Positions 18,401 through 37,635 of a stretch of DNA of 51,511 nt are shown piece after piece. Both the position numbers and the translations under genes were made by a program. The notes below the pieces were generated by a model that saw only the letters and a list, made by a program, of their open reading frames with translations, made no database searches and was not told where the DNA came from. Source of the stretch: Methylococcales bacterium (lineage in GTDB: Bacteria > Pseudomonadota > Gammaproteobacteria > Methylococcales > DRLZ01); assembly GCA_036478815.1 (NCBI GenBank), contig JAZGEP010000209.1, positions 1 to 51,511 on the forward strand, in the 5' to 3' direction. Within the stretch, counting starts at the first letter, position 1. Every line of letters starts with the position of its first letter.

Positions 18401-19206
18401 GAACTTGCCTCGTTAGTTGTATGCACACGTGTGAGCAATCAGCCTGCATTTAGTTATTATGCGCTAGCTTAATCATTTGTAACGGGCAATGTCAATGACC
18501 AGAGTGTGAAAAACTTACAATTCTGATCAATCTGGCACACCGCATGTTGACTGAAGGTGTTGAGCTCAAGCAATAGAACCTCGGGTATTTCATAGGTGTC
18601 TTTCAACAACACATCACTCACAGTCACTCGATCAAGATAGGTTTGTGCCAAGTCAATATACCTGATGGTGAGGTTCACGAATTTACACTACGTGCGTGTT
18701 GTTTGTCATTGTTTTTGAGGGTGGAATGACGCAGCTTAATGTATTGTTCGATACAGCTTCTTGAATTGGCGCAGGTTGTATCGATGCTGTCGCCATCTCT
18801 GACGCAAGTAGGGCATTTCACTCTGGGATTGTCTTACTGATCGAAGAGGAAAGACGAAACAAATTGCTCCAATGGCAGATATTCTCCAGGCTACCGCCTG
18901 TGGATAATGAGAAGTTACCAAATTTGTTCGTAATTCAGTTATTCATTGTTTAAACTCCGAAAAAATCCCTTAGTCTGCACGTTATCTCAAGAATTTCCTT
19001 TGTGCTTCATACTTTTTTCTTCATTAGGTTCAATATTCCTGGCTTAGCAATTGTGACTGCACCAGTCTGAATAATGTAGCACACCAAATTAAACATGTTT
19101 CACCAGAACACCAATTACAACACTGACATACAATATCAACATGTGGTCGGTAATAGCCTCCTACCCACGATTTCTCGAGAAAATAAATCTAATTGATAGA
19201 AACACC

Positions 19207-19249
19207 TGTGATCTGGATCATAGGTGTTTAGCCAAGTCTGTGTTTATAT
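19207..19249 (+). promoter_or_regulatory. CRP-like box TGTGATCTGGATCATA + TG-extended -10 (copy 1 of a conserved module)
   Basis: Box at 19207-19222, embedded in the 28-bp near-palindrome AACACCTGTGATCTGGATCATAGGTGTT. TGtTTATAT at 19241-19249. The box centre is ~29.5 bp upstream of the hexamer (about -41.5). Confidence 0.45.
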
Positions 19250-19992
19250 TGATACACCGTAATAAAACCTGGATTAATAGTTTTAGATAACCTAATAACT
19301 GTAAGATCAGTGTTCAATCATATAAAGCATTGTAAATATGTTAGATGATGTAAAAATTCACAGGGGTCAGAGGTAACTTCATCTGTTATTTTTACTGTTA
19401 ACTTAAATAATTAAAGACCATCTGTTTGCTCAGAATATCCTAGCCCGTAATTGTCACCAGTTGATGAAATGATCGCTTGGCTAGTTGGATTCACAAGGAG
19501 TTTTATGAAGGAGTGGAATAACCGTGTGTAGTTCTGACGGAAGAAAATTTCTTGTGGACTCAAATAGCTCGCGAGGGCTCATCAGAGAGAGAAATGCGGG
19601 CAAGTCTATTCAAAGCCTCCGTTTAATAAAGAAGATGCCATCATGAACAATAACAACAAAACAGTTAATCAATACTCTTAAGTTTTATTTGTTTGTTTAA
19701 TTTTAACCATGAAAGTCATTACGTTAACGAAATTAATGGTTTTATTGTTCGCATTTTAAATAAGATGGAGGTGATAATTGAAATATTAAATACAGAAATA
19801 AAATGAAAATTATTTATCTTGTTGGTGTTCTGAATTCGATAACTTTTATACGTATAATGAGTGGTTATACAGCCTGGTAGCAGTACTACCGATTTTCTGA
19901 TGCCAATGGTCAACTCTAATGCAATCCTTGATTGGGATTGCATTGATGGATTGCAGCACATTAATCTATTGTAGTCATAAAGAGGAAATACT

Positions 19993-22179
19993 ATGAAATA
20001 TTTTATTCCTATATTATCTTTGCTATTATTTATTTCAATATCAAATGCAGCATCCACAGAAGCTGGTGTACCCACAGCATTATCTCCGAGTGGAACAATC
20101 AGTACCAATCAACCAACATTCACGTGGACTGCAGTGCCTGAAACCAAGGTATATTTGGTTTATGCCGTAGACGCTGCTGGTGAACTTCCAGTCTGGAGAG
20201 CTGTGGGTGCTAACCAAGCTGGATGCGCATCCGGGACTGGATCTTGCTCGTATACTCATCCATCTGCTATTTTTGCAGAAGGCACAGGTGCTTTCTGGAA
20301 TGTCACTATATTTGACAGAGGTTTTGGCCCAGAAAGCAATACTCTGGAATTTACAGTGGATACAGGAGAAACAACGCCGGCGACACAAGCACCAACAGCT
20401 TTATCTCCGAGTGGTACGATTGATACAGATCAGCCGACTTTTACATGGACAGCCGTGCCAAACACAACATATTATGCGCTGTATGCAAGAGATGCTGAAG
20501 ATGTGCTACAAATCTGGAATATCGTAGGCGCTGATACAGCTGGCTGTGCCTCTGGGACAGGAAACTGTTCGTATACGCACGCACCCGCCACATTTGCAGA
20601 GGGTTCAGGTGGCTATTGGCTTGTCCTGACTGCAGACGATGAGTATGGCCCGGACAGTAATATTCTGGAATTCACAGTGGATACCAGTAATGTCAATCCT
20701 CCAGTTTCCGGCATACCGAAACAGTTGACACCAGATGGAACTATTAACACGAATACACCAACGTTCACTTGGGAGCCAGTGCCAGGTTTCACTAGCTATG
20801 CTATTTATGCAGTTGACTCGTCAGGTGAAGTCAAAGTTAATAATATTGTAGGTTGTACAACCAGTACATGTTTGTATAGTAAATCGGATTCAGTCTTTGC
20901 AGATGGCCCTGCTACATGGGAAATCAGAACTGAAGCTGATGATGGAACCAATGGCATATGGAGTGATATCCTGAATTTTACTGTGGATACAGACAGTAGT
21001 TGTGATCTATCTAAAGATTCTGATAACGATAGATTGCCAGATTGTTATGAAACAAATACAGGAGTATTCCTGAGTAACTTTGATACAGGAACTGATCCTA
21101 ACAAAGCAGATACGGATGGTGACGCAATTAATGATGGCGATGAAGTTCTGGGTACTCAGGCAGGTCTTGATTTACCTGGTATGGGTGTCAGTCCTGTTCA
21201 TAAGGATTTGTTAGTTGAGTATGACTGGTTTGAAGACGAGTTTCCTTGTAACTCTGGTGAACCACATTCACATCGACCTACTGAAGCGATAGTAAACCTT
21301 GTCTCGGCTGGTTTTTCTACAGCGCCTGCTGATCTCATCAACAATCCGGATGGACAACCTGGAGTGAATGTCATCCATGATTATGGCCAGGGTGGTTTGT
21401 TTACTGGCGGGAATTTTATCGATGATAACGATGGAATTATTGATGGTACACCCGATGCGAACAGTCAACAAGATGGAATATACTTTGAAAACATAAAAAA
21501 TCAAAATTTTGATGCTAACCGTCGTGGATATTTTTATCGTGTTTTATTGGCACACGCATTTGGAGAATTTAGTAACACTGTTTCAGGAACATCTGAATTA
21601 CCTGGTGATGATACGATTGTAGCAACACGCTGTGGAGAAGAGAATTTTCACCCTGGTGCAACGACTGAGCTAGTGATTGCAAGTACGATAATGCATGAAC
21701 TAGGACATAATTTAGGATTAAGACATGGGGGTGGTCAATTTTTAAATAGTGGGCCTGATATGAATTACAAGCCCAATTATAACTCCGTTATGAATTATCG
21801 CTTTCAATTTCCAGGAATTGATTCTGATTCAAGTTGCGATTCCCAGCCTGATGGGATAATCGGATTTTCCAATGGTACACGCTTATCATTAGATGAAAGT
21901 AATCTAGATGAAACCCAGGGAGTGTGTGGCAATATTCCAATTGACTTTAGTGGAGATGGTTTTTTTGATATCGGCATTCTGGCTGAAATAAACATCATAG
22001 AATCATTCGCTCAAAAAGATGATTTTATTGAATATACTGGTCAAGGCGATAATGAGACCCACACATTGCTTGATAACAATGATTGGGAAGATCTCGATTT
22101 TTATGCCAAGATCGAACATAGCAATGACGGTGCTGGATCAGGTGCCACATGGATGAAGTGTCAAGGAGGTGTTGAGTAA
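19993..22179 (+). CDS. secreted multidomain zinc metalloprotease (metzincin-type) with three N-terminal repeats and TSP3-like Ca-binding repeats
   Basis: 728 aa with SD AGAGGAAA and a signal peptide. Three ~107-aa repeats (20071-20361, 20392-20685, 20713-20991; core SPSGTI-T-QPTFTWTAVP ... LEFTVDT). Asp-rich DSDNDRLPDCYE / DPNKADTDGDAINDGDE. HELGHNLGLRH at 21694-21726 followed by a Met-turn-like SVMNY. Confidence 0.85.
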   Translation: MKYFIPILSLLLFISISNAASTEAGVPTALSPSGTISTNQPTFTWTAVPETKVYLVYAVDAAGELPVWRAVGANQAGCASGTGSCSYTHPSAIFAEGTGAFWNVTIFDRGFGPESNTLEFTVDTGETTPATQAPTALSPSGTIDTDQPTFTWTAVPNTTYYALYARDAEDVLQIWNIVGADTAGCASGTGNCSYTHAPATFAEGSGGYWLVLTADDEYGPDSNILEFTVDTSNVNPPVSGIPKQLTPDGTINTNTPTFTWEPVPGFTSYAIYAVDSSGEVKVNNIVGCTTSTCLYSKSDSVFADGPATWEIRTEADDGTNGIWSDILNFTVDTDSSCDLSKDSDNDRLPDCYETNTGVFLSNFDTGTDPNKADTDGDAINDGDEVLGTQAGLDLPGMGVSPVHKDLLVEYDWFEDEFPCNSGEPHSHRPTEAIVNLVSAGFSTAPADLINNPDGQPGVNVIHDYGQGGLFTGGNFIDDNDGIIDGTPDANSQQDGIYFENIKNQNFDANRRGYFYRVLLAHAFGEFSNTVSGTSELPGDDTIVATRCGEENFHPGATTELVIASTIMHELGHNLGLRHGGGQFLNSGPDMNYKPNYNSVMNYRFQFPGIDSDSSCDSQPDGIIGFSNGTRLSLDESNLDETQGVCGNIPIDFSGDGFFDIGILAEINIIESFAQKDDFIEYTGQGDNETHTLLDNNDWEDLDFYAKIEHSNDGAGSGATWMKCQGGVE

Positions 22180-22210
22180 AAAAACCTGATCTTTATCTAG
22201 AGTTCTTTAG

Positions 22211-22612: not shown

Positions 22613-22773
22613 TAAGTACCTGAGCATCATTAATTTAACATTTTACTGGTCTTTTTTCTCATCTTCGGCGTTGCAACAACAGTTACATAGCTCACTAGAG
22701 CTAAGTTGTTGCGCCTTGAAGATGAAAAAAAATCCTGCGCAAAATTGTTAAATTAATGATGCTCAGGTACTTA
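22613..22773. mobile_element. MITE, core-2, J-type termini
   Basis: TAAGTACCTGAGCATCATTAATTTAACA ... ACAGTTACATAGCTCACTAGAGC ... TGTTAAATTAATGATGCTCAGGTACTTA. Confidence 0.9.
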
Positions 22774-22835
22774 GAACGCTATTTTTAAGCTTGCGATCAG
22801 TTGTTAAAAAAATCAATCAAATTTATATAACCACC

Positions 22836-22879
22836 TGTGATCTAGATCATAGGTCGCCTAATCAAGCCTGTGTTTATAT
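22836..22879 (+). promoter_or_regulatory. CRP-like box TGTGATCTAGATCATA + TG-extended -10 (copy 2), upstream of secreted paralog 1
   Basis: Box at 22836-22851 (15/16 match to TGTGATCTAGATCACA). TGtTTATAT at 22871-22879. Lies ~190 bp upstream of ATG 23039. Confidence 0.5.
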
Positions 22880-23038
22880 TGGTATACAGCAATAAGAATT
22901 GGGCCTATAGCTATCTATATAACAGCATATTCTGGGCATCAATGAGGATATCTCTCTATCCGAATTTTTGGTTATTCCTTTAATTCGAGAAAGTTTTGTT
23001 TCTTAAAACGTTATGGTGACATGACCAAGGAGTGTGAC

Positions 23039-24898
23039 ATGAAAATACGCAATGCAAAACATCTAGCACCGATCATTTCAATACTCAGTATTTTACTTGC
23101 AACCACGGTGGTTAATGCTGCGAACGGTTATTTTGACTGTCCACTCAGCCCTACCGAATTTCAGGTAGCCATTCTCAATCCCGACCCTGGATCTGAATTA
23201 GGCGAATTTCCAGCAGATCTGGATGAAATACTGGGTTATGTACTACAAAACAATATCGGCACGGTAAAAGAATTGCTCGATCATTTGCCAGATCATATGC
23301 GTAAAAATTACGCTTTCGTGGCGGAAACCAGGGGTTTGAATGAAACCAGTGCCGATCAGCCTGGACTTATGCTGTTCGGATCAGATGGCCAATTTATGAT
23401 GAATATCGGTACCATACCGAGCTCCACTCTTTATGAAGTTGTCGACATTGCTTACCTAAATGAGGCAGGTGACTGGGAATTCAAGTCTCTGGATTTTCGT
23501 ACCAGTCCGCCCGTTTTAAGTCCTAATGGTGGCAATAATGCTGAGTGCCGAGAATGTCATGGTAAAGGTGGCGTAGACAGTAACGGTCCAATGCGTCCTT
23601 TCTGGGGAAATTACCTCGACTGGCCTGGCATCTTTTCAGACGACGGACAAGGCGGGGAAAAAATTACGCAGGCACAAGTTGCTGCGCTAACACGCATAAA
23701 AAATGGCACACAAAATCAGGAACGATTTCACAGTATTATTCCCACATTTCGATTTTTTGACACAGTTGATCAGCCGATTTTCTTACCTGATCGTCAATAT
23801 GGAAACAGCTTGACTGTAGCGAATAACGAAATGGGAAGCGCTGCAGTGGAAAGTATTTTCAAGCGTGCCAAACGTTCTCCACTTTATAACCAACTGAGGG
23901 AAGAATATCTGACCTTGGCATACTGTGGACGTGTCGGAGAAGTTTCCCCGGAGGATAAAACCAACCTCTCCAATTTGATTGAAAGCCTGGGTGGAACCAC
24001 TTCTGTATTATCTGCAAGTCTATTTAATGGCTGGATAGATATTGTCAGGTTATGGGGGCTTGATCCGCTGCACGAGTTTCCATTACATAAACTGACTAAA
24101 GAGCATGCGACGACTACCGTAAACGATACCAGATGGAATGCCAGTAGCGGGGATCTTGACGAGCAGTTAACTCTACTGGTGCTGTTAGATCTGGCCGCAC
24201 AGAATCCACAGGTCGATGTCATTCTGCGAAATAATCAATCGTCTTACGAAATGACTAACTGTGGAACGCTTTTTAGCAATCAGAAGGAGTACTTACAACA
24301 TAAAGTCTATGCAAATTTCACCTTGAAAGGCAATGCAAGACAGCTGGCTCGTTCCAGTTACTATGATATTAATTATACCCGCTTCACCCAGTCCATGGTG
24401 AATGTCAAAACCGAGCTATGTGACCTGTTAACCAGTGAGATAGGAACAGATACATTGCAACCAATAACACCTGTTGTGCTCCCAACTCAACCTGTTGATG
24501 ATCCTGCAGCCAATATACCCAATGACCCAGTCAATCAGATCGTCGATGCCTGCCAGCAAGGGCAGACTCCTGTTGGAAACATTCACTTAACTGCAGATAA
24601 CGCAGTCTGTTTGCAAGATGTTTCCAATGGTGATCAAAAACAAATGGCTCTCTTTGTACCCGATGACAAGGTGGGATCTACGTTGGAAATTATACTGAGC
24701 CACGGTAGTGGAAATGGCAATTTATTGCACAAACATGACAGCAGACCAACCAGTGCGGTATTTGATCATAGATCCAGTAATTCTGGAAATGAAGAAAAAA
24801 TACTGGTTCAGAATGTACAACGAAATTGGAACTATATCCATGTCCGCTCTGATCCAGCATTTTCTGGCGTTACTTTGCGAGTCCGTTTTATTCAGTAG
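23039..24898 (+). CDS. secreted protein of unknown family, paralog 1 (single CxxCH motif, degenerate PPC-like C-terminus)
   Basis: ATG 23039 is preceded by AAGGAG. Signal peptide IISILSILLATTVVNA. CRECH at 23546-23560. Pro/Thr linker, then a beta-rich C-terminal domain. Long blocks are identical to the next gene. Confidence 0.8.
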   Translation: MKIRNAKHLAPIISILSILLATTVVNAANGYFDCPLSPTEFQVAILNPDPGSELGEFPADLDEILGYVLQNNIGTVKELLDHLPDHMRKNYAFVAETRGLNETSADQPGLMLFGSDGQFMMNIGTIPSSTLYEVVDIAYLNEAGDWEFKSLDFRTSPPVLSPNGGNNAECRECHGKGGVDSNGPMRPFWGNYLDWPGIFSDDGQGGEKITQAQVAALTRIKNGTQNQERFHSIIPTFRFFDTVDQPIFLPDRQYGNSLTVANNEMGSAAVESIFKRAKRSPLYNQLREEYLTLAYCGRVGEVSPEDKTNLSNLIESLGGTTSVLSASLFNGWIDIVRLWGLDPLHEFPLHKLTKEHATTTVNDTRWNASSGDLDEQLTLLVLLDLAAQNPQVDVILRNNQSSYEMTNCGTLFSNQKEYLQHKVYANFTLKGNARQLARSSYYDINYTRFTQSMVNVKTELCDLLTSEIGTDTLQPITPVVLPTQPVDDPAANIPNDPVNQIVDACQQGQTPVGNIHLTADNAVCLQDVSNGDQKQMALFVPDDKVGSTLEIILSHGSGNGNLLHKHDSRPTSAVFDHRSSNSGNEEKILVQNVQRNWNYIHVRSDPAFSGVTLRVRFIQ

Positions 24899-25252: not shown

Positions 25253-27076
25253 ATGAAAATACGAAAAGTATCAACTCTAGCATCAATTATTTCGGTCATT
25301 GGAGTTTTGTTTTTGACCATTACAGCAGATGTAACGGCCAATACTTATGAATGTCCGCTAAGTCCTACCGAGTTTCAAGTGTCCATTTCCAACCCGGATC
25401 CAGAACCTGAACCGGGGGAATTTCCGGCAGATTTGGATGAGATAATGGGTTATGTGCAGGAAAATAATATTAACTCAGTGAAAGAGTTGATGGATCATTT
25501 ACCCGAACACATGCGTAAAAATTATGCGTTCGTAGCGGAAACACGTGGCTTGGGACATACCAGTACTGAAGAACCGGGACTATTGTTGTTCGGATCAGAT
25601 GGCAGGTTTATGATGAACATGGATACCATGCCGATTTCTCCACGCTACAAAGTTGTTGATATGGCCTATCTCAATGAGAAAGGTGATTGGGAATTTAAGT
25701 CTTTGGATTTCAATATCAGCCCTCCTGTATTAAGCCCTGATGGAGGTAACAACGGTGAATGCCGTCAATGCCATGGACAAGGCGGCGTAAACAGCAACGG
25801 CCCAATGCGACCTTTTTGGGGAACTTATCAGGAGTGGCCCGGATTTTTTTCAGATACCATAGAAAGACAGGAAAGAGTTACACTTCAACAAGCATCTGTG
25901 TTGGCACGCATTGAGAATGGAATGCAAAATTCAGATCGGTTTCATAACCTAATTACCCGGGAGAAATATTTTTTTAAAATCGATCGGTATATTGATTTGC
26001 CTGATCGCGATTATGGCATCAGCCTGACTGTAGCGAATAACGAAATAGGTAGTGCAGCAGCTGAAAGCATTTTTAAGCGTGTTAAGCGTTCACAGCTTTA
26101 TAGTGAGCTGAGGGATGAATATCTGGCTTTGGCATACTGTGCCGGTCAGGGAGTACTCTCTTCAGAAGATAGAATAAATTACACCAGTCTTATACAATCC
26201 CTGGGAGGATCGACCGAAGGTATTACCAACAGATTTGATACTGGTTGGATTGATATCGTTCGGCTGTGGGGGCTGGACCCTTTGCATGAGTTTCCATTAC
26301 ACAAATTAACCCAGGAGTATGCAACGAATACCTTCGTAGAGACTAGATGGAATGTCGGTAACGGTGACCTGCCTGAACAATTGACTTTATTGATACTGTT
26401 AGATTTAGCCGAAAACAATACACAAGTTGATTCGATTCTGCGAAATAGCCAGACATCTTGGGAGATGGATGGTTGTGGAGTTCCCTTTAACAACATGAAG
26501 GAATACTTACAGCATAAAATCTACGCTAATTACACCTTAAAAGGAAATGCTCGACAACTTGCCCGTTCGAGTTACTACGATCAAAACTATCCTCGTTTCA
26601 GCCAATCTATGGAGAATGTCAAAACCGAACTATGCGATTTGCTAGTCAATGATTTTGGGTCTGACACGTCACCATCAACAGAACCTTCCCAGCCATCAGA
26701 ACCTATTGACGATAACAATCTTGATGACACTCCCACCAATAATTCAGATGGCGCATTGTTAGTGACAGGACAATCGGTTTCTATCACACAATCCGAGGAA
26801 GATGCCGAAGACACTTTTTACATAGACGTTCCTGCGGGTACCAACCGATTAGTCATTAGCATTACTGGTGAATTAAGTGATGCTAACTTGGGTAGTGCTA
26901 ATTTATATATTCGTCACGGTTCAAAACCAACCTTATCTGCTTTTGATTGTCGTCCTTACTTCAATGGCAACAATGAAATTTGTAACCAGGAGAATCCGGC
27001 AGCGGGTCGATGGTATGTCACAATTGTAGCATTTGATGCTTATTCCGAAGTTAAGTTGAAAGCTATTATTGAGTAG
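25253..27076 (+). CDS. secreted protein of unknown family, paralog 2 (single CxxCH motif, C-terminal PPC domain)
   Basis: ATG 25253 is preceded by AAAGGAG, in the same RBS context as paralog 1. Signal peptide. CRQCH at 25760-25774. C-terminal pre-peptidase (PPC)-like pattern FYIDVPAGTNRLVISITG...ANLYIRHGSKPTLSAFDCRPY..GNNEICN...GRWYVTIVAFDAYSEV. Confidence 0.8.
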   Translation: MKIRKVSTLASIISVIGVLFLTITADVTANTYECPLSPTEFQVSISNPDPEPEPGEFPADLDEIMGYVQENNINSVKELMDHLPEHMRKNYAFVAETRGLGHTSTEEPGLLLFGSDGRFMMNMDTMPISPRYKVVDMAYLNEKGDWEFKSLDFNISPPVLSPDGGNNGECRQCHGQGGVNSNGPMRPFWGTYQEWPGFFSDTIERQERVTLQQASVLARIENGMQNSDRFHNLITREKYFFKIDRYIDLPDRDYGISLTVANNEIGSAAAESIFKRVKRSQLYSELRDEYLALAYCAGQGVLSSEDRINYTSLIQSLGGSTEGITNRFDTGWIDIVRLWGLDPLHEFPLHKLTQEYATNTFVETRWNVGNGDLPEQLTLLILLDLAENNTQVDSILRNSQTSWEMDGCGVPFNNMKEYLQHKIYANYTLKGNARQLARSSYYDQNYPRFSQSMENVKTELCDLLVNDFGSDTSPSTEPSQPSEPIDDNNLDDTPTNNSDGALLVTGQSVSITQSEEDAEDTFYIDVPAGTNRLVISITGELSDANLGSANLYIRHGSKPTLSAFDCRPYFNGNNEICNQENPAAGRWYVTIVAFDAYSEVKLKAIIE

Positions 27077-27096
27077 CATTAATCCATTCATAGAGC

Positions 27097-27373: not shown

Positions 27374-29662
27374 GTGGTTTATTTATTCAGATTTATTGTG
27401 TTAGTTGCTACTGCCAATGTAGTGTTTGCCACGCCAAACATCATCACAACGCAGGAATTTGAAATACGCAACGGGCACGCTGAAAAAGCCTTTCAACACG
27501 GTGATTTTGAAAATGCCATCGTTCATTGGTTATCGACGGCAGATGTTTTTGCCAGTCGTGGTGAGACAGCCAAGCAAATCACAGCCTTGATCAGGCTCAG
27601 TGATGCATATCAGGCCATGGGTCAAAACGCAGCTTCAATTATTGCTTTAAATGCGGCTAATACACTGACTGACAAATTGACTGATCAACGTCAAAAAATC
27701 AATATATTTAATAGTTTGAGTGCAGCCTATAGTGCTGCTGGAAAGCATCAAAGAGCCACTGTTTTTGTTCAGCAGGCTATTGAGAAAGCTCGCGCTGCTA
27801 ACGCACCAGGACTCCTTGCCGCAACACTCAATAACCAAGGCAATTTGTTGGTTCGTCAGAAGAAATTGAACCAGGCTGTTGAAGCCTACTCTGAGAGTAT
27901 TCAATTGGCTGACTCTTCAGGAAATCAAATGCTTGCTGCAAAAGCATCGGTTAATTCAGTAATCGCAGCTTTTGAAATGGGAATTGTTGACACTATTGAG
28001 GTGAAGTTACTAATCGCACAAGCGCATTTGGAGAAAATCGCCGATGATCATAATAAAGCCTTTCACTGGATCAGTCTGGGGCAGATAGCGCAGCGCTTGT
28101 CTGTCAATGATGCAAATCAACGTCTCTGGCAGCCTTTCGCCCACCATGCTTTTAAACAGGCAAGCGCTATCGGAAAACGTATTTCAGACGCTCGTGCGAT
28201 CTCTTACGCTACGGGCTATCTAGGTGATCTTTATGCGGCTGAGAATCGATATGACGAGGCATTACAGCTCACTCGGCAGGCGATTTTTGCGATCGAAACC
28301 ATCAATGCCCCTGAAATTTTGTATCGTTGGCAGTGGCAAACAGGTCAAATACTGAAAGCGAAAAGTGAACCCAAAGCCGCTATTCAAGCCTATCAACAAG
28401 CTATCAATACATTGCAGTTGGTACGCCAGGATTTTACAGTTCGACAACTAAGCACATCATCCTTTCGTGAGGAAATTGGTCCTTTATATCTGGAGTTAGC
28501 AGATTTGTTACTGCAATCTAACGATACACTATCAGACCAGGACAAAATTCAACACAATCTGGTTGCTGCACGCAATACCATGGAACAGTTAAAAGCAGCA
28601 GAATTACAAGATTATTTTAAAGATGATTGCGTTGTCAGTTTACAGAAAAAGTTGCGTTCGCTGGAAACTATTGATCAACTGACTGCAGCAATCTATCCGA
28701 TACTGCTTGCTGACCGTACAGAGATTTTACTTAGCTTACCGGAGGGGATAAAACGTTTTACCATTCCAGTTAGCCGCGCTGATGTCACTCAGCAGGTACG
28801 GCTTTTTCGTCAAAATCTGGAAAATCGCACCACACGAGAATATCTTCCACAAGCTCAACAACTTTATCAATGGTTGATTGCTCCGCTCCAATCGACATTA
28901 AATGCGCATCAGATTGAAACATTGATAATGGTGCCTGATGAATTCTTGCGAACAATTCCCATGGCTGCGCTTCATGACGGCGAAGCATTCCTGATCGAAA
29001 AATATGCTATCGCAAACACACCAAGTCTGAGTTTAACCGACCCTAAGCCGCTGGATTTGAATAAAATCCATGTTCTCGCTAGCGGTTTATCGGAAGCTGT
29101 TCAGGGGTTTTCACCCCTGCCTCATGTTGCAGAAGAACTAGCCAACATTCAGAAAACACTTGGCGGTCAAGTGTTATTGGACAATGCATTCCTGCTGAAC
29201 AGAATCCAGAAAGAACTAAAAAACACCTCTTATAATATTGTCCATATTGCTTCACATGGACAATTCAAAAACAATACACAGGAAAACTTCGTATTAACCT
29301 TCGATAAAAAGTTAAATATGGATGCGCTGGAGCAGCTTATTGGACAAAGCAGATTTCGTGATAAACCGGTGGAATTACTTGTCTTGAGCGCTTGTCAAAC
29401 CGCAGCTGGTGATGATCGGGCCGCCTTGGGACTTGCCGGCATTGCTATCAAAGCCGGTGCTCGAAGCGCCGTTGCTACTCTATGGTTTATCAACGATCTG
29501 GCGGCGGCTGATTTGGTGACTGAATTTTATCGTCAACTAAAAGCAACCCACACATCAAAAGCCCAGGCATTACAAAAAGCGCAAATTCACCTCATTAAGA
29601 AACCTGCCTATCACCACCCTTACTTTTGGTCACCATTTTTGTTGATTGGTAATTGGCTTTAA
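27374..29662 (+). CDS. signal-peptide TPR-repeat + CHAT (caspase-like) domain protein
   Basis: 762 aa with a GTG start after GAAGGAC. N-terminal hydrophobic signal FIVLVATANVVFA and ~400 aa of TPR-like helical repeats. CHAT dyad: His in VHIASHG (29255-29257) and Cys in LVLSACQTAAGD (29393-29395). Family-typical ending HPYFWSPFLLIGNW. Confidence 0.9.
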   Translation: MVYLFRFIVLVATANVVFATPNIITTQEFEIRNGHAEKAFQHGDFENAIVHWLSTADVFASRGETAKQITALIRLSDAYQAMGQNAASIIALNAANTLTDKLTDQRQKINIFNSLSAAYSAAGKHQRATVFVQQAIEKARAANAPGLLAATLNNQGNLLVRQKKLNQAVEAYSESIQLADSSGNQMLAAKASVNSVIAAFEMGIVDTIEVKLLIAQAHLEKIADDHNKAFHWISLGQIAQRLSVNDANQRLWQPFAHHAFKQASAIGKRISDARAISYATGYLGDLYAAENRYDEALQLTRQAIFAIETINAPEILYRWQWQTGQILKAKSEPKAAIQAYQQAINTLQLVRQDFTVRQLSTSSFREEIGPLYLELADLLLQSNDTLSDQDKIQHNLVAARNTMEQLKAAELQDYFKDDCVVSLQKKLRSLETIDQLTAAIYPILLADRTEILLSLPEGIKRFTIPVSRADVTQQVRLFRQNLENRTTREYLPQAQQLYQWLIAPLQSTLNAHQIETLIMVPDEFLRTIPMAALHDGEAFLIEKYAIANTPSLSLTDPKPLDLNKIHVLASGLSEAVQGFSPLPHVAEELANIQKTLGGQVLLDNAFLLNRIQKELKNTSYNIVHIASHGQFKNNTQENFVLTFDKKLNMDALEQLIGQSRFRDKPVELLVLSACQTAAGDDRAALGLAGIAIKAGARSAVATLWFINDLAAADLVTEFYRQLKATHTSKAQALQKAQIHLIKKPAYHHPYFWSPFLLIGNWL

Positions 29663-29834: not shown

Positions 29835-29883
29835 GTATTTTAGACAACCATAAAGCCGCCCCATATGTGAAAAAAAACAGACC

Positions 29884-29927
29884 TGTGATCTAGCTCATAG
29901 CTCCACAAACCAAAAATGTGTTTTTAT
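29884..29927 (+). promoter_or_regulatory. CRP-like box TGTGATCTAGCTCATA + -10-like element (copy 3), upstream of the DUF928 gene
   Basis: Box at 29884-29899. TGtTTTTAT at 29919-29927. Lies ~200 bp upstream of ATG 30100. The same flanking block (CCTGTGATCT...GTGTTT.TAT) as copies 1 and 2. Confidence 0.45.
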
Positions 29928-30099
29928 AGGGCTATAGGGAAAGAACTGGTTTGGTTTCCATGATCTTATTGACGGAAACTCATTATCGGACGGACTTTTT
30001 TCAGTAATGCTGCATATTCTTACCTATGCATGAACAGTAATTATTAAATCCTTGTTCCTCAGTATCGTGAACATTTATCTAGATAGTAAGAGAATAATT

Positions 30100-30960
30100 A
30101 TGAATATCAACGTCACCTTGTTATTTTATCTTGGGATATTTTGTCTCGGAATAGCCTTTTTGGCGTCCAATGGATTTGCCGAGAATTTACACAAGCCTGA
30201 CCTTCAAAAACGCCTCTTGGGAGCTGATGAAAATACAGAAGGATCGATCCTGAAAAAAACAGATGTACGGTCTAATATTAATGATCAGCAGGTAAAACCT
30301 TCCCAGCGCCCAGTTTACACTCCTCCATTTCTTGGTGCTCCATCTGCCAATCGACTGATTGGCATGGCTGTGCGTGGGATCGACCATGAAGATTTGTTGT
30401 TATCGGTGCTTACGCCAGAGCATACTGGATTAACCTCCCATGCTCAGCCGGTATTTTATTGGTATCTATCCAAGCCGGTTCCCAAATCTTATCAGTTTAT
30501 TGAATTTGTGTTGAGCTCTGATAAATCAACAACACCTGTTTTACGAACACGGTTAGATAAACCCTCAAAAGGGGGTATACAGAAAATACCATTAGCGGAC
30601 TACAACATCAGTCTGATACCAGAAGTAGAATACAGGTGGTCGATTGCATTAGTGTCAGATGCTAATGCACGTTCACTTGATATTGTTAGCAGTGGAAACG
30701 TCAAACTGGCTAAGCCCAATAAGGTATTGGAGACAAGTCTTCAAGCAGTCTCTATTGCACAACATCCTGCTATTTTCGCCCAAGCAGGATTATGGTATGA
30801 AGCGATGACTAGTCTCGTTAATCAAGTTGAGAAGCAACCTGAAAACTTGACACACACTCAAAATTTAGCAGCACTTCTTGAGCAAGCAGGATTACAGGAA
30901 ATAGTTACCCATATGAATAATAATGCTATCAGCATGGGCATTGTAGATAAACAAAAGTGA
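30100..30960 (+). CDS. DUF928-like secreted protein
   Basis: ATG 30100 gives the signal peptide LLFYLGIFCLGIAFLASNGFA. Family-like landmarks from memory: PPFLGAP..R..G..VRG, LTPEHTGLTSHAQPVFYWYLSKP, and C-terminal AGLWYEAMTSL. Confidence 0.7.
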   Translation: MNINVTLLFYLGIFCLGIAFLASNGFAENLHKPDLQKRLLGADENTEGSILKKTDVRSNINDQQVKPSQRPVYTPPFLGAPSANRLIGMAVRGIDHEDLLLSVLTPEHTGLTSHAQPVFYWYLSKPVPKSYQFIEFVLSSDKSTTPVLRTRLDKPSKGGIQKIPLADYNISLIPEVEYRWSIALVSDANARSLDIVSSGNVKLAKPNKVLETSLQAVSIAQHPAIFAQAGLWYEAMTSLVNQVEKQPENLTHTQNLAALLEQAGLQEIVTHMNNNAISMGIVDKQK

Positions 30961-31031: not shown

Positions 31032-33752
31032 TTAATATTGTTGATTGCAATCAACCCTCATGGCTGAATACAGGATGCTTTTTTCTAATCCTGAATATAA
31101 AGTATCACGATCATTCTCTGGTGAATGCAGGAATGACGCGCCTTTATTAATCGGATATTGAGGTGGAGTCTCATCAATCGTTGTATAATCCAAAAAATCT
31201 GATGGTATCAAATCTCCAGGCTTAACCGGTATTCCACCGCGCCCTTTTACCACAAACCGACTCAAGTTACTTCCGGAACGGGCGGCACATCGCTTACTCA
31301 GCTGCTGTGAAGCATTCATTAATGTATCTGGAAGAACCGCAATGCTACCACTGATGTTGGTATCTGGTGTTAGACTGAGTAAGCCATCCATGCTTACTTC
31401 TGATGAGGCAGTTACCTCGTTGCTGGGTGATTCGAAGACTAAGCCTGAAATAGTGATATTACCACCTGGACCTCCAGCAGCGTCAGCTTTTACTTTACTG
31501 TTGTTGAAAGCCACGATTGGAGTATTAATGATAATATCACCTCCTTTACCATTATCGGCGCGAACACTGGCTTCAATGCTGCTATCACTTAACTGCAAAC
31601 TGTTACCATTGATTATTTTGATATTGCCTGCATCTGGTTGAGTTGATTCAGTTGTAATAGCTGACCCGTTCTGTATACGAAACGTGTTAGATAATGTGAT
31701 AACAATATCGCCAGATTGATTACTCTCGGACTGTCTTGTTTTGTCAGAATTGTCACGAACAATATTTGAACCGAGCGATGCGCCATTATCCAAAAGAATG
31801 TCGTCGGCGGTTATTTTTAAATCTCCGCTTTTACCTGTGCCTGTTGTAGTTGCACTTATGTTTGATTGACTGACTTCTATGTGTTTTGCGTTGATTTGTA
31901 TCTCTCCGGCATTACCGGCAATTGCGGTAGCGGCGTTGATGAGTGATTTATTGGAGATGTTAAGAAAATCAGCATTAATTTTCACATTACCTCCTTTTCC
32001 TGCGTTCAAACTGGTAGTAAGAATGCCAGAAACATCATAGATGTCTATGTGGTCAGCTTTTAATGAAATATTGCCAGAATCTACACTGGAATCAGCAGAA
32101 ATGATCAAATTACCATCTTTATCGGCCTGTAAGGGAATACTGGTAATCAATGAACCACTAAATACTTTTATACTCTTGGCTATTATTGAAATATTGCCAG
32201 CAGATCCAGTATTATCAACTTGTTCTGTAAGGGAAGTAGTCGCAATAAATCCATTATTATAAATTTCCAGTTGACCAGTATTAGCATTAATTGTTAAATT
32301 TCCTCCATTTCCAGAACCATTCGTAAAGACACTGACTATGGCTGAATCATGAATTCTTGGATCCACAGAAACAATCTGTAAATCACCTGTATTTCCTGAA
32401 CTCTTGGTAAAAATTCCGATTGAGCTTCCATCAGAAACATCTAGATAATCAGCATCAATCATCATATTACCTGCATTACCTGCACCCGAGGTAGATGATT
32501 GAATTACAGCACCATCACTGACTTCTAGATTATCAGAATTGATGACTATATTTCCTGCGTTGCCTGCATTTCTCGCTTCTGTGAATAGTCCAGGAACAAA
32601 TTCAGACACATTACCCTCAAGTAGAATAGAATTCGCATTGATTATCAAATCTCCACCTTGACCTGTAGAATGAGTTGTTGAGTTAATGCGTGTCCTATGT
32701 GTTAATTTAATTCCATCAACGTCCAGCATAATGTTACCTGCGTTACCTTCACCTGATGCGAAGGTATCAATACCGCTTTGAGGGGGGGATTCTATATCAT
32801 CTGTTTTCGGAACCCCGTTGATATTTAAATTACCTGTTAAAGCAATATCAATATTACCGCCATTACCGTTTGTTGTATTCGCGGCAATAAATGTGTTATC
32901 CATAATCAATTGTCCACCGCGAATAAATATTGTTCCGGCGGTATCAGCGCTAACATCAACTTCGGCTTTTGTTTTTGATTCAATCGAAACACGTGGAACA
33001 TTCGGGTCATGACTAAGATGAATATTTCCAAATTGAGTAAATGACGTGGTATCCACCCTTGATTCATCCACAATCACTGCTCCGACAGAGTCAACGCTCA
33101 CCAGGTTAATTTGCCCACTGGGTGCGTAGAGTGAACTGTTTTTACTCGTGATGTTCCCTCCGACTAAGGATAGTGTTGAATCTGTTGGTACCTTAAGCAC
33201 GGTGTTTGAGACAGAAATGCCTGCAGGATGACTGTTTAAAAAGCCAAAGGATTCAGGTGCAGCTGTTGTTATTATCGGGCTGATGGTTGCTGTGCCATTG
33301 TTAAAATGCACGCCATCTTTAAACCCTAGATAGTCGGCAGTACTGGCATGAAAAGAACCTTGCACATTAAGGCTCGCATTCTCACCAAAAATTACGCCGG
33401 CTGGATTTAGAAAATATAGATTAGCTCCTGAGATAGTAGAACGTATTGTGCCGTCAATGTTTGATGCTTGCCCACCTGTGACGCGCCCAATAACATTCTG
33501 GATGTCAGTTGAACCACTAAACACAGCACTTTCTGTGTTGTTAAGATTGAATTGTCCAAAGCTGTGAAATAAATTACCACCAGCACGTTGGCCCAAGTCC
33601 TCAGTGATTTGATAATTTGGACCTGAAAGAGTGCCAGCAGCTCCCACAGAGCCATCGAGAGTCACTTCGCTCTGGAGAGAAGAGCTGAAAATACAGATGA
33701 TAATCAGTAGCAAACAATCTTGTGTCGAGAATTTTTGAGTACCGTTTTTCAT
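31032..33752 (-). CDS. two-partner-secretion exoprotein (TpsA-like; filamentous-haemagglutinin N-terminal domain + beta-helix)
   Basis: 906 aa with SD AAGGAG 8 nt upstream and a signal peptide. TPS domain GNLFHSFGQFNL ... VIGRVTGG ... ANLYFLNPAGVIFG ... GSFHAST. Long run of G-N-A/G-G-N-I/M beta-helix repeats. C-terminal CAARSGSNLSRFVVKGRGGIPVKPGD module. Confidence 0.9.
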   Translation of the reverse strand: MKNGTQKFSTQDCLLLIIICIFSSSLQSEVTLDGSVGAAGTLSGPNYQITEDLGQRAGGNLFHSFGQFNLNNTESAVFSGSTDIQNVIGRVTGGQASNIDGTIRSTISGANLYFLNPAGVIFGENASLNVQGSFHASTADYLGFKDGVHFNNGTATISPIITTAAPESFGFLNSHPAGISVSNTVLKVPTDSTLSLVGGNITSKNSSLYAPSGQINLVSVDSVGAVIVDESRVDTTSFTQFGNIHLSHDPNVPRVSIESKTKAEVDVSADTAGTIFIRGGQLIMDNTFIAANTTNGNGGNIDIALTGNLNINGVPKTDDIESPPQSGIDTFASGEGNAGNIMLDVDGIKLTHRTRINSTTHSTGQGGDLIINANSILLEGNVSEFVPGLFTEARNAGNAGNIVINSDNLEVSDGAVIQSSTSGAGNAGNMMIDADYLDVSDGSSIGIFTKSSGNTGDLQIVSVDPRIHDSAIVSVFTNGSGNGGNLTINANTGQLEIYNNGFIATTSLTEQVDNTGSAGNISIIAKSIKVFSGSLITSIPLQADKDGNLIISADSSVDSGNISLKADHIDIYDVSGILTTSLNAGKGGNVKINADFLNISNKSLINAATAIAGNAGEIQINAKHIEVSQSNISATTTGTGKSGDLKITADDILLDNGASLGSNIVRDNSDKTRQSESNQSGDIVITLSNTFRIQNGSAITTESTQPDAGNIKIINGNSLQLSDSSIEASVRADNGKGGDIIINTPIVAFNNSKVKADAAGGPGGNITISGLVFESPSNEVTASSEVSMDGLLSLTPDTNISGSIAVLPDTLMNASQQLSKRCAARSGSNLSRFVVKGRGGIPVKPGDLIPSDFLDYTTIDETPPQYPINKGASFLHSPENDRDTLYSGLEKSILYSAMRVDCNQQY

Positions 33753-33807: not shown

Positions 33808-35616
33808 CTATAATAACCGTGCATTAACCTGAAAATGGATTCCAAAATCTTGAATATCATGTTCTGTGCCTTCTTTAATCGATCGAAAAGGTAGGCCCCA
33901 ATATAGCTCTGAGTGCAACATTGGCGATGGATCCCAAAGAAGACCCAATCCCCAACTGCCGATCGTATTAGGTTCGGGTGATGCAAGGTCGCTATTTTTT
34001 GACCATCCAAAGTCAACGAAGGTTGCCAGTTGTACATTGCCATCCGTCATTGTTTTGCTGAGACCGGGAATTGGGATGCGAATAATGGGAACTCGCCATT
34101 CCAAAGAGGTGGTAGCACCATTGTCTCTTACAAATTGGTTTTCACGATAACCGCGTACACTGTGTCGACCACCAACAGAAAACTTTTCCAAGGGTAACAA
34201 GGAGTCGTTAGCCAGTTGTGCATCTGCGCGAAACAGTATTTGACTGTCTAATATTGGCAGACGCATAACCCATTGGAATTGGCCTAGCCAAGTAAAGAAT
34301 TGACCATCTGGATCACCATTACTATTGTGAGTTGCATCGAATGCATTGATTCCCCAATTCAATGTCGAACGGGCCGCAATGACTTGTGTTTGACTACGAT
34401 CTAGCCATTCTTGAGTAAAGCGAAGCACAGAGATTTTACTCACACCTTTAGCATTGCCTTCCTCCGGCACGCCTAAAGAGAAGGAAAAAGGTTGGTTATC
34501 GAGAAAGGTCTTACTGCGTCTGTATTCAAAAGCGAGTGTTGCAGAAAAGGTTTGGTTGGGTGTTCTGTAAAAAGGATGGGACAGTGCAATGCCATAGGTT
34601 TCCGAGCGACTCTCAATAGAGATGTCGTTGATCGGCTTTTCTACGACATCCGAATCGCTGTTTTGGTAATAGAGATTGAGACGGGTATCGTATGCTGTTA
34701 GTGGTAATGAGTAAGATCCATTAAAGTCGTGCAGTCCTTCCATGCCAGTGTAACTAAAAAACAGCCCATCTCCAAATCCTGTTAAATTACGATGTCGGAA
34801 CCATATTTTGCCACTGATACCACCGATACTTGGTGAGCGGTCATTTGCCGCGACTGCACCGATTTCATAAGGTCTTGCTTCAGTGACAGCAATGTTCATG
34901 CGGCTTTCTCCAGGTTTTAGCCCAGGATGCAACTCTGCGTTGATTCTTTCAATCAGTGGATCTTGCTGCAACAACAACAGATGTTTCTGTACATTGGTGA
35001 TATTCAGTGGCGGTCCGAAGCTTTGTGCGATTCGATCCTCAATATATGAAGAGCGTAACCAATGGTTGCCGCTAAGTGTCATTTTGGACAATTCCCCTTC
35101 AATGACTTGCAGTTGTATTATGCCATCCTGAACCTGTTGGTCTGGAAGGATGACACCTGAGTTAATATAACCTTGATCAATATAATAGCGGGTCAGTTGG
35201 TATCGAAGTGCTTGGAGTTGTTCATTGGTAACGGTGCGGTTTTCGTAGTGAGTGGTAATTTTTTTGAGTGTTTGGTCAGAAAATACGGTGTTGCCCGTTA
35301 TCCTGATTTCTTTAATAAAAACGCTAAATGTAGTGGATAGCAGCGCATCTTTTTCTGGTGCGATTTCAACCGGTGGCAACCGAAACTCAGGTTTTTGTGG
35401 AAATTGATTGAGTTTTAAGTCAGGTAGTTTTTTCGATTCATTGCTGAGCGCATCGGGAGCGGTAATTACAGGTGTGTTTATTGTTGGGCTACTAGGCGCT
35501 GGAGATCCAGCGTGGCTTGCCTTTGGCTGAAAACACAAACAAGATAATAGTGAGATAATAATGGACTTGATTAATATTTCCATTTGATCTTGATGTGTTA
35601 ACAGTATCTTGTTCAC
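33808..35616 (-). CDS. TpsB outer-membrane transporter (ShlB/FhaC/HecB family, POTRA + beta-barrel)
   Basis: 602 aa. POTRA-like IKEIRITGNTVFSDQTLKKI and loop-6 motif FSVGGRHSVRGYRENQ. Lies 55 bp upstream of the TpsA gene on the same strand. Start uncertain (GTG 35616 or ATG 35583). Confidence 0.85.
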   Translation of the reverse strand: MNKILLTHQDQMEILIKSIIISLLSCLCFQPKASHAGSPAPSSPTINTPVITAPDALSNESKKLPDLKLNQFPQKPEFRLPPVEIAPEKDALLSTTFSVFIKEIRITGNTVFSDQTLKKITTHYENRTVTNEQLQALRYQLTRYYIDQGYINSGVILPDQQVQDGIIQLQVIEGELSKMTLSGNHWLRSSYIEDRIAQSFGPPLNITNVQKHLLLLQQDPLIERINAELHPGLKPGESRMNIAVTEARPYEIGAVAANDRSPSIGGISGKIWFRHRNLTGFGDGLFFSYTGMEGLHDFNGSYSLPLTAYDTRLNLYYQNSDSDVVEKPINDISIESRSETYGIALSHPFYRTPNQTFSATLAFEYRRSKTFLDNQPFSFSLGVPEEGNAKGVSKISVLRFTQEWLDRSQTQVIAARSTLNWGINAFDATHNSNGDPDGQFFTWLGQFQWVMRLPILDSQILFRADAQLANDSLLPLEKFSVGGRHSVRGYRENQFVRDNGATTSLEWRVPIIRIPIPGLSKTMTDGNVQLATFVDFGWSKNSDLASPEPNTIGSWGLGLLWDPSPMLHSELYWGLPFRSIKEGTEHDIQDFGIHFQVNARLL

Positions 35617-35712: not shown

Positions 35713-37635
35713 CTATTTGTTTTTTCCTGTAACCTGATAAATATCAACGTTATCTTTTTTTCCGCGTAGTTCAACATTTCCTATTATTTTCAGTTGAAAT
35801 TGATTACCGATATAATCCAGCATTTTTCCACCAATGAGAATGCGACAGGGTTGATTAAAATAATCTGGATTAAATTGGGATTTATCAAAATCCTCCAGCC
35901 GTGCTGCTGTATTAACTGTGTCACCATAGATGGTATATTCCATGCGGTCTCGGCCACCAATACTGCCTGTTGCTAATGACCCTGTAAACAAGCCGATACG
36001 CATTCCTACGACCGGTAGCCGCCGCTGCTTCCATTGCTTATTCAACTGAATTAACCTTTCGTTCATTGCCAACGCACAGCTAATCCCATTGATCGCATCC
36101 TGGCGAATTTCTGATACAGACTGGCGTGGCACAGGTATTCCAAATCCAGCGAAAATGGCATCGCCAACAAAGTGGATAACAATGCCTTCATGATTGGCAA
36201 CAAGTGGAGTCATTTCAGCTAAATATTCGTTGAGCCAGTCAAATAAATCTTCAGGCTTCAGTTGTTCTGCTAACGCAATAAAGTGTTGCAGGTCAGTAAA
36301 CATGACTGTGGCTGTAGTTTTTTGTGGTCGGGGACGACCGCCGGCATAAAAAAGTTCCTGTTGTCGCCAGATATCTTCGGCAATTTCGGGTGCAACGTGT
36401 TTTGAAAATAAACTCATGAGTTGCGAGCGTTTCACTTTTTCCAGTGTGGCTTTGTGGGCAGTGGTTAATACACTGGATAATAACCAAGCCAGTGTCGGTG
36501 TGGCGACAATTAGCCATATGCCATTCATAAATAAAAGTGCTGTAAAGCCAAGTAATGCAGCAAGTCCTGCCATCCACACCACGATTAACCGCCCAACAGA
36601 ATGTTGCCGCAGACTCATGAGTACTCCGAACACCGTCCACAGCAAAATCCATAACATTTCTTGCCTGGTAGTGGCTGTTTTCATTGGCGTGTGTCCTTGC
36701 TGTGCAATTCTAAGGATTTGATCAACAATAGCTGCGTGCATCATTACACCGCTAGCCCGGTTGTTCTGTTCTGCACCCCGGTTACAAGACGTATAATAAA
36801 AGTCTTTCACACTGTCTGCGATAACTCCGACCAACACTATTTTATTCTTGAAATCCTCAAGACGAACATTTCCATGCCTGAATTGTTTTAGTGTATATCG
36901 AGGTATCAACTCAGGCGGTTTGCAAAAATCCAGAAGGAACTGATAGCCTTTTGCATCGGCATCCACATATCCACCATCATTCTTTTTGAAAGGGACAATA
37001 ACGGTCGATTGTAGCTTGAGGTTGGTAGTATTCGGCTGAGGAGCAATACCTTCTGCTTGTAAATATATCAGCGCGATGCGCAGAGGTAGCGAATAAAAAA
37101 CCTCTTTGCCATCATCTAAAAACAACAAACCACGTCGAATAATGCCATCACGGTCGGGAAGTGCGTCGATAAAGCCAAATTGATCAGTATTGAACAACGC
37201 AGGCGGAGGATTGACTCTCGAGGATTGTTGATCACTATACTTTATTGAAGTGATTATGTTTTGATGCTGTTTAAATAGGTTCTCCAAAGTTTGATGGCCT
37301 GGAGGAACGGGCGTATCTCGATAGATATCAATACCAATGACACGCGCTTGGTATTGTATTAGTTGAGTCAATATTTCTGCTAATAACTGATCTGAAATTG
37401 GCCAGCTGCTTAATTGACTAATATCATTTTCTGTTATAGTGATAGCAGTGATGGGAGGGACAGTAGAAGCGATAGGACTATGTCGTATCAGTTTATCATA
37501 AGCAGACAACTCCAAAAACTCTGACACACCACTTTTATAGAAAATCAATACAGAACAATAGGCTAGAACAACAATTAAAATACTGGCCATACTTTGCTTG
37601 ATTGCATGGGTTAAAAATCGGAATAATTTTATCAC
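35713..37635 (-). CDS. CHASE2 sensor-domain class III adenylate/guanylate cyclase
   Basis: 640 aa. TM1, then a ~290-aa periplasmic CHASE2-like region, three TMs and a cyclase domain (VMFTDLQHF, HFVGDAIFAGFG, RIGLFTGSLATGSIGG..RMEYTIYGDTVNTAARLE). The GTG start overlaps the crp-like stop. Confidence 0.9.
   Translation of the reverse strand: MIKLFRFLTHAIKQSMASILIVVLAYCSVLIFYKSGVSEFLELSAYDKLIRHSPIASTVPPITAITITENDISQLSSWPISDQLLAEILTQLIQYQARVIGIDIYRDTPVPPGHQTLENLFKQHQNIITSIKYSDQQSSRVNPPPALFNTDQFGFIDALPDRDGIIRRGLLFLDDGKEVFYSLPLRIALIYLQAEGIAPQPNTTNLKLQSTVIVPFKKNDGGYVDADAKGYQFLLDFCKPPELIPRYTLKQFRHGNVRLEDFKNKIVLVGVIADSVKDFYYTSCNRGAEQNNRASGVMMHAAIVDQILRIAQQGHTPMKTATTRQEMLWILLWTVFGVLMSLRQHSVGRLIVVWMAGLAALLGFTALLFMNGIWLIVATPTLAWLLSSVLTTAHKATLEKVKRSQLMSLFSKHVAPEIAEDIWRQQELFYAGGRPRPQKTTATVMFTDLQHFIALAEQLKPEDLFDWLNEYLAEMTPLVANHEGIVIHFVGDAIFAGFGIPVPRQSVSEIRQDAINGISCALAMNERLIQLNKQWKQRRLPVVGMRIGLFTGSLATGSIGGRDRMEYTIYGDTVNTAARLEDFDKSQFNPDYFNQPCRILIGGKMLDYIGNQFQLKIIGNVELRGKKDNVDIYQVTGKNK

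Follow-up and report, generated by a model that had tools for sequence, protein, structure and literature searches.

Do three CRP-type boxes on a bacterial contig belong to the Crp-family regulator that is encoded on the same contig, and which genes would they control? The contig in question (JAZGEP010000209.1; the stretch of 51.5 kb from its position 1 to 51,511 is referred to as the window) comes from a Methylococcales/Crenotrichaceae-type gammaproteobacterium, a relative of methanotrophs that is known only from metagenomes. It encodes a Crp-family regulator, a nucleotide cyclase with a CHASE2 domain and several secreted proteins, and a first-pass annotation had proposed that the cyclase product activates this Crp, which then drives three promoters carrying the boxes. 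Comparison with related islands shows that the boxes are real, conserved, oriented and promoter-linked CRP-type sites, and the modules in which they are embedded are probably class II-type promoters that the cyclic nucleotide-loaded Crp of the CHASE2 cyclase circuit would activate.

Three boxes and their promoter context

The sequence TGTGATCTNGNTCATA is present three times in the window (19207, 22836 and 29884), each time on the plus strand, and the three 16-mers annotated in the first pass were recovered with their coordinates and strand:

Box 1, plus strand: core 19207-19222, pattern match TGTGATCTGGATCATA; 22-mer 19204..19225, ACCTGTGATCTGGATCATAGGT, matrix score 33.4 bits
Box 2, plus strand: core 22836-22851, pattern match TGTGATCTAGATCATA; 22-mer 22833..22854, ACCTGTGATCTAGATCATAGGT, matrix score 35.8 bits
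Box 3, plus strand: core 29884-29899, pattern match TGTGATCTAGCTCATA; 22-mer 29881..29902, ACCTGTGATCTAGCTCATAGCT, matrix score 33.4 bits

When up to two mismatches to TGTGATCTNGNTCATA are allowed, the window contains four matches, namely the three boxes and box 2 read in reverse; dinucleotide-preserving shuffles yielded a mean of 0.48 matches, and none of 100 shuffles reached four. The consensus of E. coli CRP is TGTGA-N6-TCACA, and the three boxes are the sole sites in the 51.5 kb that match it with at most one mismatch, each of them being a CRP/CAP-type site with a single deviation. The class of sites with two mismatches is not enriched overall (20 found, 35 expected). One base separates the core of box 2 from TGTGATCTAGATCACA, the idealised CAP site of E. 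coli.

Conservation extends beyond the boxes, as had been claimed: modules 1 and 2 match at 82% over 87 bp (19180-19265 and 22809-22895), and modules 2 and 3 at 74% over 70 bp (22833-22902 and 29881-29949). The conserved blocks thus have a length of 70-87 bp, and in each of them the sequence TGTGTTT(T)ATA begins 16-17 bp past the box. The following elements were assigned:

Module 1 block, 19180..19265, plus strand: 82% identity with module 2; the gene for a metzincin-like protein follows 786 bp downstream
Module 1 extended -10-like element, 19239..19250, plus strand: TGTGTTTATATT, hexamer TTATAT starting 29.5 bp from the box centre
Module 2 extended -10-like element, 22869..22880, plus strand: TGTGTTTATATT, TG-n-hexamer starting 30.5 bp from the box centre
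Module 3 -10 region, 29917..29928, plus strand: TGTGTTTTTATA, TG-n-hexamer starting 30.5 bp from the box centre

The measured distances (29.5 bp for copy 1, 30.5 bp for copies 2 and 3) reproduce the range of 29.5-30.5 bp given by the earlier annotation and, judged from the position of the -10-like hexamer, would place the site centres near -41.5 to -43.5. CAP class II sites adjoin the -35 element (PMC10127613, which also defines the promoter classes). Promoter prediction gave no sigma-70 -35/-10 pair for any of the three modules, which fits a promoter lacking a -35 element, and the expected -35 positions read AGGTCG, AGGTGT, AGCTCC and the like, without a recognisable -35 hexamer. The combination expected of a class II promoter, a weak or absent -35 element and an extended -10 element, is therefore present, and the sequence TGTG-n-TTATAT/TTTTAT is kept across lineages.

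A site that overlaps the -35 region can also repress, and a Crp-family protein might act here by occluding this region, or the site might mainly serve as an architectural or insulator element. We consider this improbable: the modules offer no recognisable -35 hexamer to occlude, and the phasing of the box to the extended -10 element within ±1 bp and its fixed orientation are hallmarks of class II activation (classes as defined in PMC10127613).

The position of the modules relative to the genes differs between the copies. The distance from the start of box 2 to the ATG of the gene for secreted paralogue 1 (23039) is 203 bp and that from the start of box 3 to the ATG of the DUF928 gene (30100) is 216 bp, close to the 190-200 bp claimed previously; this figure does not hold for copy 1, from which the next start codon (19993) is 786 bp away. 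The leader downstream of module 1 would be unusually long, with about 740 nt (19256-19992), and contains only short open reading frames of up to 50 amino acids and one copy of a dispersed repeat (19437-19521). A strong terminator with a 16-bp stem is located at 22211-22249 between the metzincin-like gene and module 2. No RNA family of Rfam was detected anywhere in the window.

Conservation of the module across lineages

Related islands were reached via homologues of the secreted paralogue, Crp and the DUF928 protein in seven other lineages. In six further lineages, whose proteins are 49-85% identical, the module is found upstream of orthologous genes, in the same orientation and with a spacing that varies by ±1 bp, while the remaining intergenic sequence has diverged:

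L026/L046 (metagenome-assembled genome of the Crenotrichaceae; paralogue 74% and DUF928 protein 52% identical): module before the paralogue and DUF928 genes
L027: module before a Peptidase_S8 gene, the paralogue gene and the DUF928 gene
L047: module before the paralogue and DUF928 genes
L028: module before the DUF928 gene
L045: module before the DUF928 gene; another box next to the CHAT gene
L023: module before a string of LuxR-type, PPC and paralogue genes (operon)
L036: module before an HMG-CoA-reductase-like operon directly after crp-cyclase-TPS

The consensus of the module reads ACCT(G/A)TGA-N6-TCATAG(G/C), followed after 16-17 bp by the -10 region. All 15 sites, which stem from 7 lineages, are intergenic, keep the sequence TGTGA/TATGA-N6-TCATA with the TCATA half always nearest to the -10 region, and are located 97-290 bp from a start codon, copy 1 of the window excepted. 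The TGTG of the -10 region follows 16 or 17 bp past the box in 11 of these sites. The N6 spacer varies freely, and the surroundings vary too. An alignment of the regions upstream of the DUF928 gene from four lineages contains only two invariant blocks, ACCTGTGA...TCATAGC and T.TGTTTT.ATA. When applied to loci outside its build set, which comprised 148,817 bp, a position matrix that was built from 10 sites retrieved five further sites (seven matches of at least 20 bits, palindromic sites counting twice) and none in 20 shuffles. Leaders are not conserved past about +40 between lineages, and within promoter subtypes conservation includes the early transcribed region. In phylogenetic terms, the pattern of sites amounts to a clean promoter footprint.

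In 15/15 sites, the half proximal to the promoter reads TCATA and never TCACA, and two sites (L047 and L036) are perfect palindromes of the form ACCTATGA-N6-TCATAGGT (TATGA/TCATA). The invariant TCATA half and these palindromes point to T(G/A)TGA as the regulator's true half-site. No clear pattern of covariation was seen between the recognition helix of Crp, which carries R or K at its last position, and the variants of the box.

Two other types of box were considered and rejected. The lux box is a 20-bp palindrome with the consensus CTG-N10-CAG, whereas the box described here is a 22-bp dyad reading CTG-N12-TAG; there is no LuxR gene within the window, and a LuxR-type gene is found downstream of a box in L023 and L042. 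An FNR box (TTGAT-N4-ATCAA) was dismissed on account of the G at the discriminating position (GTGA), and the T after TGTGA varies between lineages (TGTGAC, TGTGAA and others).

Some of the islands differ in the genes that follow the box. The perfect palindromic box of L036 (16216-16237, ACCTATGACCTAGTTCATAGGT) lies 146 bp upstream of a string of genes for an HMG-CoA-reductase-like protein, a CDP-alcohol phosphatidyltransferase and an MMPL protein, which directly follows crp-cyclase-TPS, and TCTAAT is found at the standard -10 distance. In L023, the box at 7943-7958 precedes a LuxR-type gene (8040-8822), and in L042 a variant box (CTGTGACTCATCGCACAG, 10215-10230) precedes another one (10327-11109); both encode an autoinducer-binding domain and a GerE domain, which hints at a Crp-to-LuxR cascade in these two islands. 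At least one target locus, L045, is without crp within 10 kb.

The intergenic regions of the window are crowded with dispersed repeats, several families of elements that resemble MITEs (miniature inverted-repeat transposable elements) or REPs (repetitive extragenic palindromes), 50-165 bp long, in both orientations, 70-98% identical and separate from the CRP-box modules:

Family 1: 29674-29839, 3377-3528, 3914-4080, 16739-16903, 38692-38822, 48024-48123, 49391-49537, 51325-51491
Family 2: 4-103, 1972-2104, 16966-17089, 22629-22777, 25056-25176
Family 3: 4146-4307, 42356-42435, 48208-48374

Upstream of boxes 2 and 3, repeat copies come as close as 42-55 bp, and the identity of 82% over 87 bp between modules 1 and 2 would fit a duplication, so that the block of 60-90 bp might be a remnant of such a repeat or a recent local duplication devoid of a regulatory role. 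This explanation, which the first-pass annotation had named as the one that would overturn its reading, is extremely improbable, judged from the window together with the related loci. Within the window, no more than three copies of the block exist, all of which are promoter-proximal and none of which belongs to a repeat family, and lineages with protein identities of only 49-74% keep the box and the -10 element, but not their surroundings, at the orthologous positions. An 18-base version of the box, ACCTGTGATCTNGNTCAYAG, gave 17 single matches in unrelated taxa among 185,579 species genomes, which is at chance level; this pattern is over-specific in the spacer and, as the source species is not included in the set, uninformative on the source genome.

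A further observation concerns locus L019 (GCA_044240345.1, JAZHCG010287418.1) of the same strain, which is 99.9% identical to positions 16737-29834 of the window, that is, only between two copies of the dispersed repeats. Its flanks differ from those of the window: the left one carries genes for ALAD and shikimate dehydrogenase, and the CHAT gene is not followed by a DUF928 gene, reflecting either a repeat-mediated rearrangement or an assembly chimera.

The regulator, the cyclase and the genes of the island

The genes for the regulator and the cyclase head a minus-strand operon, and the genes associated with the modules are encoded on the plus strand:

19993..22179, plus strand: target gene 1, secreted metzincin-like protein of 728 amino acids with the motif HELGHNLGLRH and three N-terminal repeats
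23039..24898, plus strand: target gene 2, secreted paralogue 1 with signal peptide, CxxCH motif and C-terminal PPC-like domain
25253..27076, plus strand: secreted paralogue 2 with PPC domain, no box of its own
27374..29662, plus strand: TPR-CHAT protein, no box of its own in the window
30100..30960, plus strand: target gene 3, DUF928 protein with signal peptide
31032..33752, minus strand: TPS-domain (TpsA-like) exoprotein, last gene of the minus-strand operon
33808..35616, minus strand: outer-membrane transporter of the ShlB/FhaC type (TpsB, POTRA and Omp85 domains)
35713..37635, minus strand: CHASE2 and class III nucleotide cyclase, start overlapping the crp stop
37632..38342, minus strand: Crp-family regulator of 236 amino acids, GTG start

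The regulator gene had originally been assigned to 37632-38399; its start is the GTG at 38342 and not the TTG at 38399. The protein possesses a cyclic nucleotide-binding domain and a Crp-type helix-turn-helix domain (PF00027, 1.7e-23; PF13545, 7.8e-15; PF00325, 7.2e-07). It is 26% identical to E. coli CAP and retains E72, R82/S83, T127, R180, E181 and R185 of the latter; the position of S128 is occupied by N in the window protein and by S in most orthologues. The motif RESVNR, whose location at 37743-37760 on the minus strand was correctly given before, aligns to RETVGR of CAP, with N replacing G184, and the helix R-E-S-(V/I)-N-(R/K) is kept in 11 Crp orthologues down to an identity of 44%. 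The motif RE(T/M)VGR defines the main cluster of CAP proteins and their DNA readout (PMC10127613).

The cyclase contains a CHASE2 domain (1.2e-55) and a Guanylate_cyc domain (7.6e-22). Its gene is adjacent to or overlaps with crp in 8/8 of the ortholog lineages retrieved (the window, L028, L030, L036, L038, L040, L046 and L047), and genes for ShlB and/or TPS proteins usually come next. The crp/CHASE2-cyclase pair is an order-wide module that occurs in varied chromosomal contexts, and the earlier proposal of an accessory block with its own regulatory circuit needs qualification in that the pair also exists outside any single block of this kind. The substrate-specifying residue is Lys in Pseudomonas aeruginosa CyaB (3r5g) and Spirulina CyaC (1wc0) and Glu in Cya2 (2w01); at the aligned position, the cyclases of the window, L028 and L036 have His and those of L038, L040 and L047 have Arg, and the partner residue is Thr. 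Adenylate cyclases carry Lys at this position, paired with Asp or Thr, and guanylate cyclases carry Glu; with His or Arg instead, the product may be cyclic AMP (cAMP) or cyclic GMP (cGMP). An autoregulatory box upstream of crp was searched for with an alignment of eight lineages and a matrix scan, and none is conserved.

The island is flanked by housekeeping genes for glycogen phosphorylase, fumarase, phosphoglucomutase and isoamylase. A cyanobacterial host, which DUF928, CHAT and CHASE2 might suggest, was rejected, as identical or related proteins are assigned to Methylococcales, Methylococcaceae and Crenotrichaceae bacteria. The three N-terminal repeats of the metzincin-like protein comprise around 100 amino acids each (…LSPSGTI.T.QPTFTWTAVP…); the protein has no match in Pfam and only weak matches to adamalysins, and the equivalent, putatively box-controlled slot is taken by a Peptidase_S8 gene in L027 and L047. 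The CxxCH motif of the secreted paralogues, which is of the haem-c type, is invariant in 16 homologues. Sequence searches of Pfam, NCBIfam and PDB gave no match for the N-terminal part of around 450 amino acids, and Foldseek recognised only the C-terminal PPC domain in an AlphaFold model with a pLDDT (predicted local distance difference test) score of 68. A near-consensus sigma-70 site, TTGACA-17-AATAAT, is found upstream of the gene for paralogue 2 at 25021-25049, and paralogue 2 may be expressed independently of the module.

A putative circuit and its relation to known systems

In the mechanism that we favour, the CHASE2 domain of the membrane cyclase would sense a periplasmic or envelope signal, and the co-transcribed cyclase would produce a cyclic nucleotide, which loads the dimeric Crp (37632-38342). 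The loaded Crp would bind the 22-bp CRP-family site ACCT(G/A)TGA-N6-TCATAG(G/C), which stands in for the -35 element and whose centre is located 29.5-30.5 bp upstream of the hexamer of a TG(TG)-extended -10 element, and would thereby recruit RNA polymerase. The genes switched on in this way would be those for the metzincin-like protease, the CxxCH/PPC paralogue or paralogues and the DUF928 protein, and probably also the downstream genes of the same transcription units. The chain from the cyclase product via Crp to the promoters, as proposed in the first pass, draws support from the conserved and oriented sites, the coupling of crp to the cyclase gene and the contact residues, while our inferences concern the protein that binds, its activating and not repressing role, the points at which transcription starts, the nucleotide and the signal.

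Several findings weigh against this mechanism. Copy 1 lies far from its next start codon, and the Crp loci L038 and L040, whose Crp proteins are 62-63% identical to that of the window, have no box within ±10 kb. The TCATA half represents a G-to-A change from the CAP half-site, at a position that matters for E. coli CAP. The cyclase does not have the canonical Lys of adenylate cyclases that specifies adenine. The regulator scores 84.3 bits against the NCBIfam CRP equivalog NF008732, for which the cut-off is 266, and by this measure is no orthologue of CAP. Among solved structures, Clr of Sinorhizobium meliloti (7pza, E = 2.4e-32), which reads a different motif, is its closest relative. Since this relative is Clr but R180, E181 and R185 are kept, the window Crp would unite an overall sequence of the Clr type with DNA readout of the CAP type, matching the CAP-like boxes.

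From some of these points it could be argued that the sites are read by a different Crp/Fnr protein, for instance an orthologue of CAP or Vfr, and that the local Crp and cyclase regulate something else. The host is a gammaproteobacterium, box 2 comes within one base of the idealised CAP site, and the local Crp is no CAP equivalog; Clr, its nearest solved relative, recognises GTNNC-N4-GNNAC (PMC10127613). This explanation is unlikely, since the boxes are physically associated with this crp on the same island or contig in six lineages and share features that are foreign to CAP sites: the ACC/GGT flanks and the invariant TCATA suggest a dedicated reader. Furthermore, there are no boxes in the other ~40 kb of the window or in most of the 149 kb of other loci, and the local Crp itself carries the readout residues R-E...R of the CAP type.

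The promoter architecture favoured here is shared with the class II promoters of E. coli CAP, of which galP1, with its site at -41.5 and an extended -10 element, is an example, as are the 16-bp inverted repeat TGTGA-N6-TCAxA, the replacement of the -35 element by the site and the TG-extended -10 element around 30 bp from the centre. The regulators have R180/E181/R185 and the cyclic nucleotide-contacting residues in common. In contrast to CAP sites with their AAA/TTT flanks, the window boxes are flanked by ACC/GGT and their proximal half is invariably TCATA; the partner cyclase belongs to class III, carries a CHASE2 domain and has its gene in the crp operon, unlike a class I CyaA; and the Crp, at 26% identity, stays below the cut-off of the CRP equivalog.

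As a circuit, the system most resembles the CHASE2 cyclase-Clr-NsrA pathway of S. meliloti, with a different readout, organisation and set of targets. In S. meliloti, the CHASE2 class III cyclases CyaD1/CyaD2/CyaK sense an envelope signal with the help of NsrA, a beta-barrel protein of the outer membrane, and the cyclic nucleotide activates Clr at sites between -42 and -76 relative to the transcription start (PMC13001267, PMC7529298, PMC10127613). Both systems thus pair a CHASE2 class III cyclase with a Crp-family regulator, Clr being the closest solved relative of the one described here, and a beta-barrel protein of the outer membrane, here of the ShlB/FhaC type, is likewise encoded in the window operon and resembles NsrA in its class. 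Clr lacks E181 and reads HGTYHC-N4-GRWACA (GTNNC-N4-GNNAC; PMC10127613), whereas the window boxes are of the TGTGA type, E181 is present and the helix is CAP-like. Moreover, the S. meliloti genes are not arranged in a crp-cyclase-TpsB-TpsA operon, and the targets in the window are genes for a secreted protease, haem-motif proteins and a DUF928 protein. Genes for CHASE2 sensors and DUF928 proteins also co-occur in Nostoc punctiforme (PMC5587647). For the cyanobacterial CHASE2/DUF928/CHAT/TPS neighbourhoods, no regulator, promoter or link to a cyclic nucleotide has been described, whereas the CHASE2 output in the window appears to be a cyclase that is coupled to a Crp whose putative target promoters can be identified.

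The mechanism proposed here is a textbook class II Crp-type arrangement and introduces no new principle. In the literature that was searched, neither this regulon nor Crp/cAMP-type signalling in methanotrophs has been described, and the function of DUF928 is not described beyond one passing mention (PMC5587647). It is tempting to speculate, though rather doubtful at present, that the island forms a self-contained outside-in signalling loop, which feeds a dedicated Crp with a small, insulated regulon. TpsB/TpsA, possibly together with the CHAT protease and the DUF928 protein, would then inform the CHASE2 cyclase of an event in the envelope or outside the cell, much as NsrA informs CyaK; the cyclic nucleotide, which might not be cAMP given the His/Arg-Thr pair, would load the dedicated Crp; and the non-consensus site with its ACC flanks and the obligatory TCATA would insulate the regulon of secreted haem/PPC proteins and proteases from other Crp/Fnr proteins.

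DUF928, the ligands of CHASE2 domains and the CHAT/TPS neighbourhood are essentially uncharacterised, and the sharply defined promoter module, with its probable regulator and the source of the second messenger close by, turns the cluster into a testable circuit. This circuit is small, consisting of one regulator, one cyclase and three promoters, and could be rebuilt in E. coli. Its candidate regulon comprises the secreted protease, the CxxCH/PPC proteins and the DUF928 protein, to which a LuxR-type regulator and a lipid-synthesis operon are added in some lineages. If the outside-in loop proved true, it would provide the first functional handle on the widespread CHASE2-CHAT-DUF928-TPS neighbourhood.

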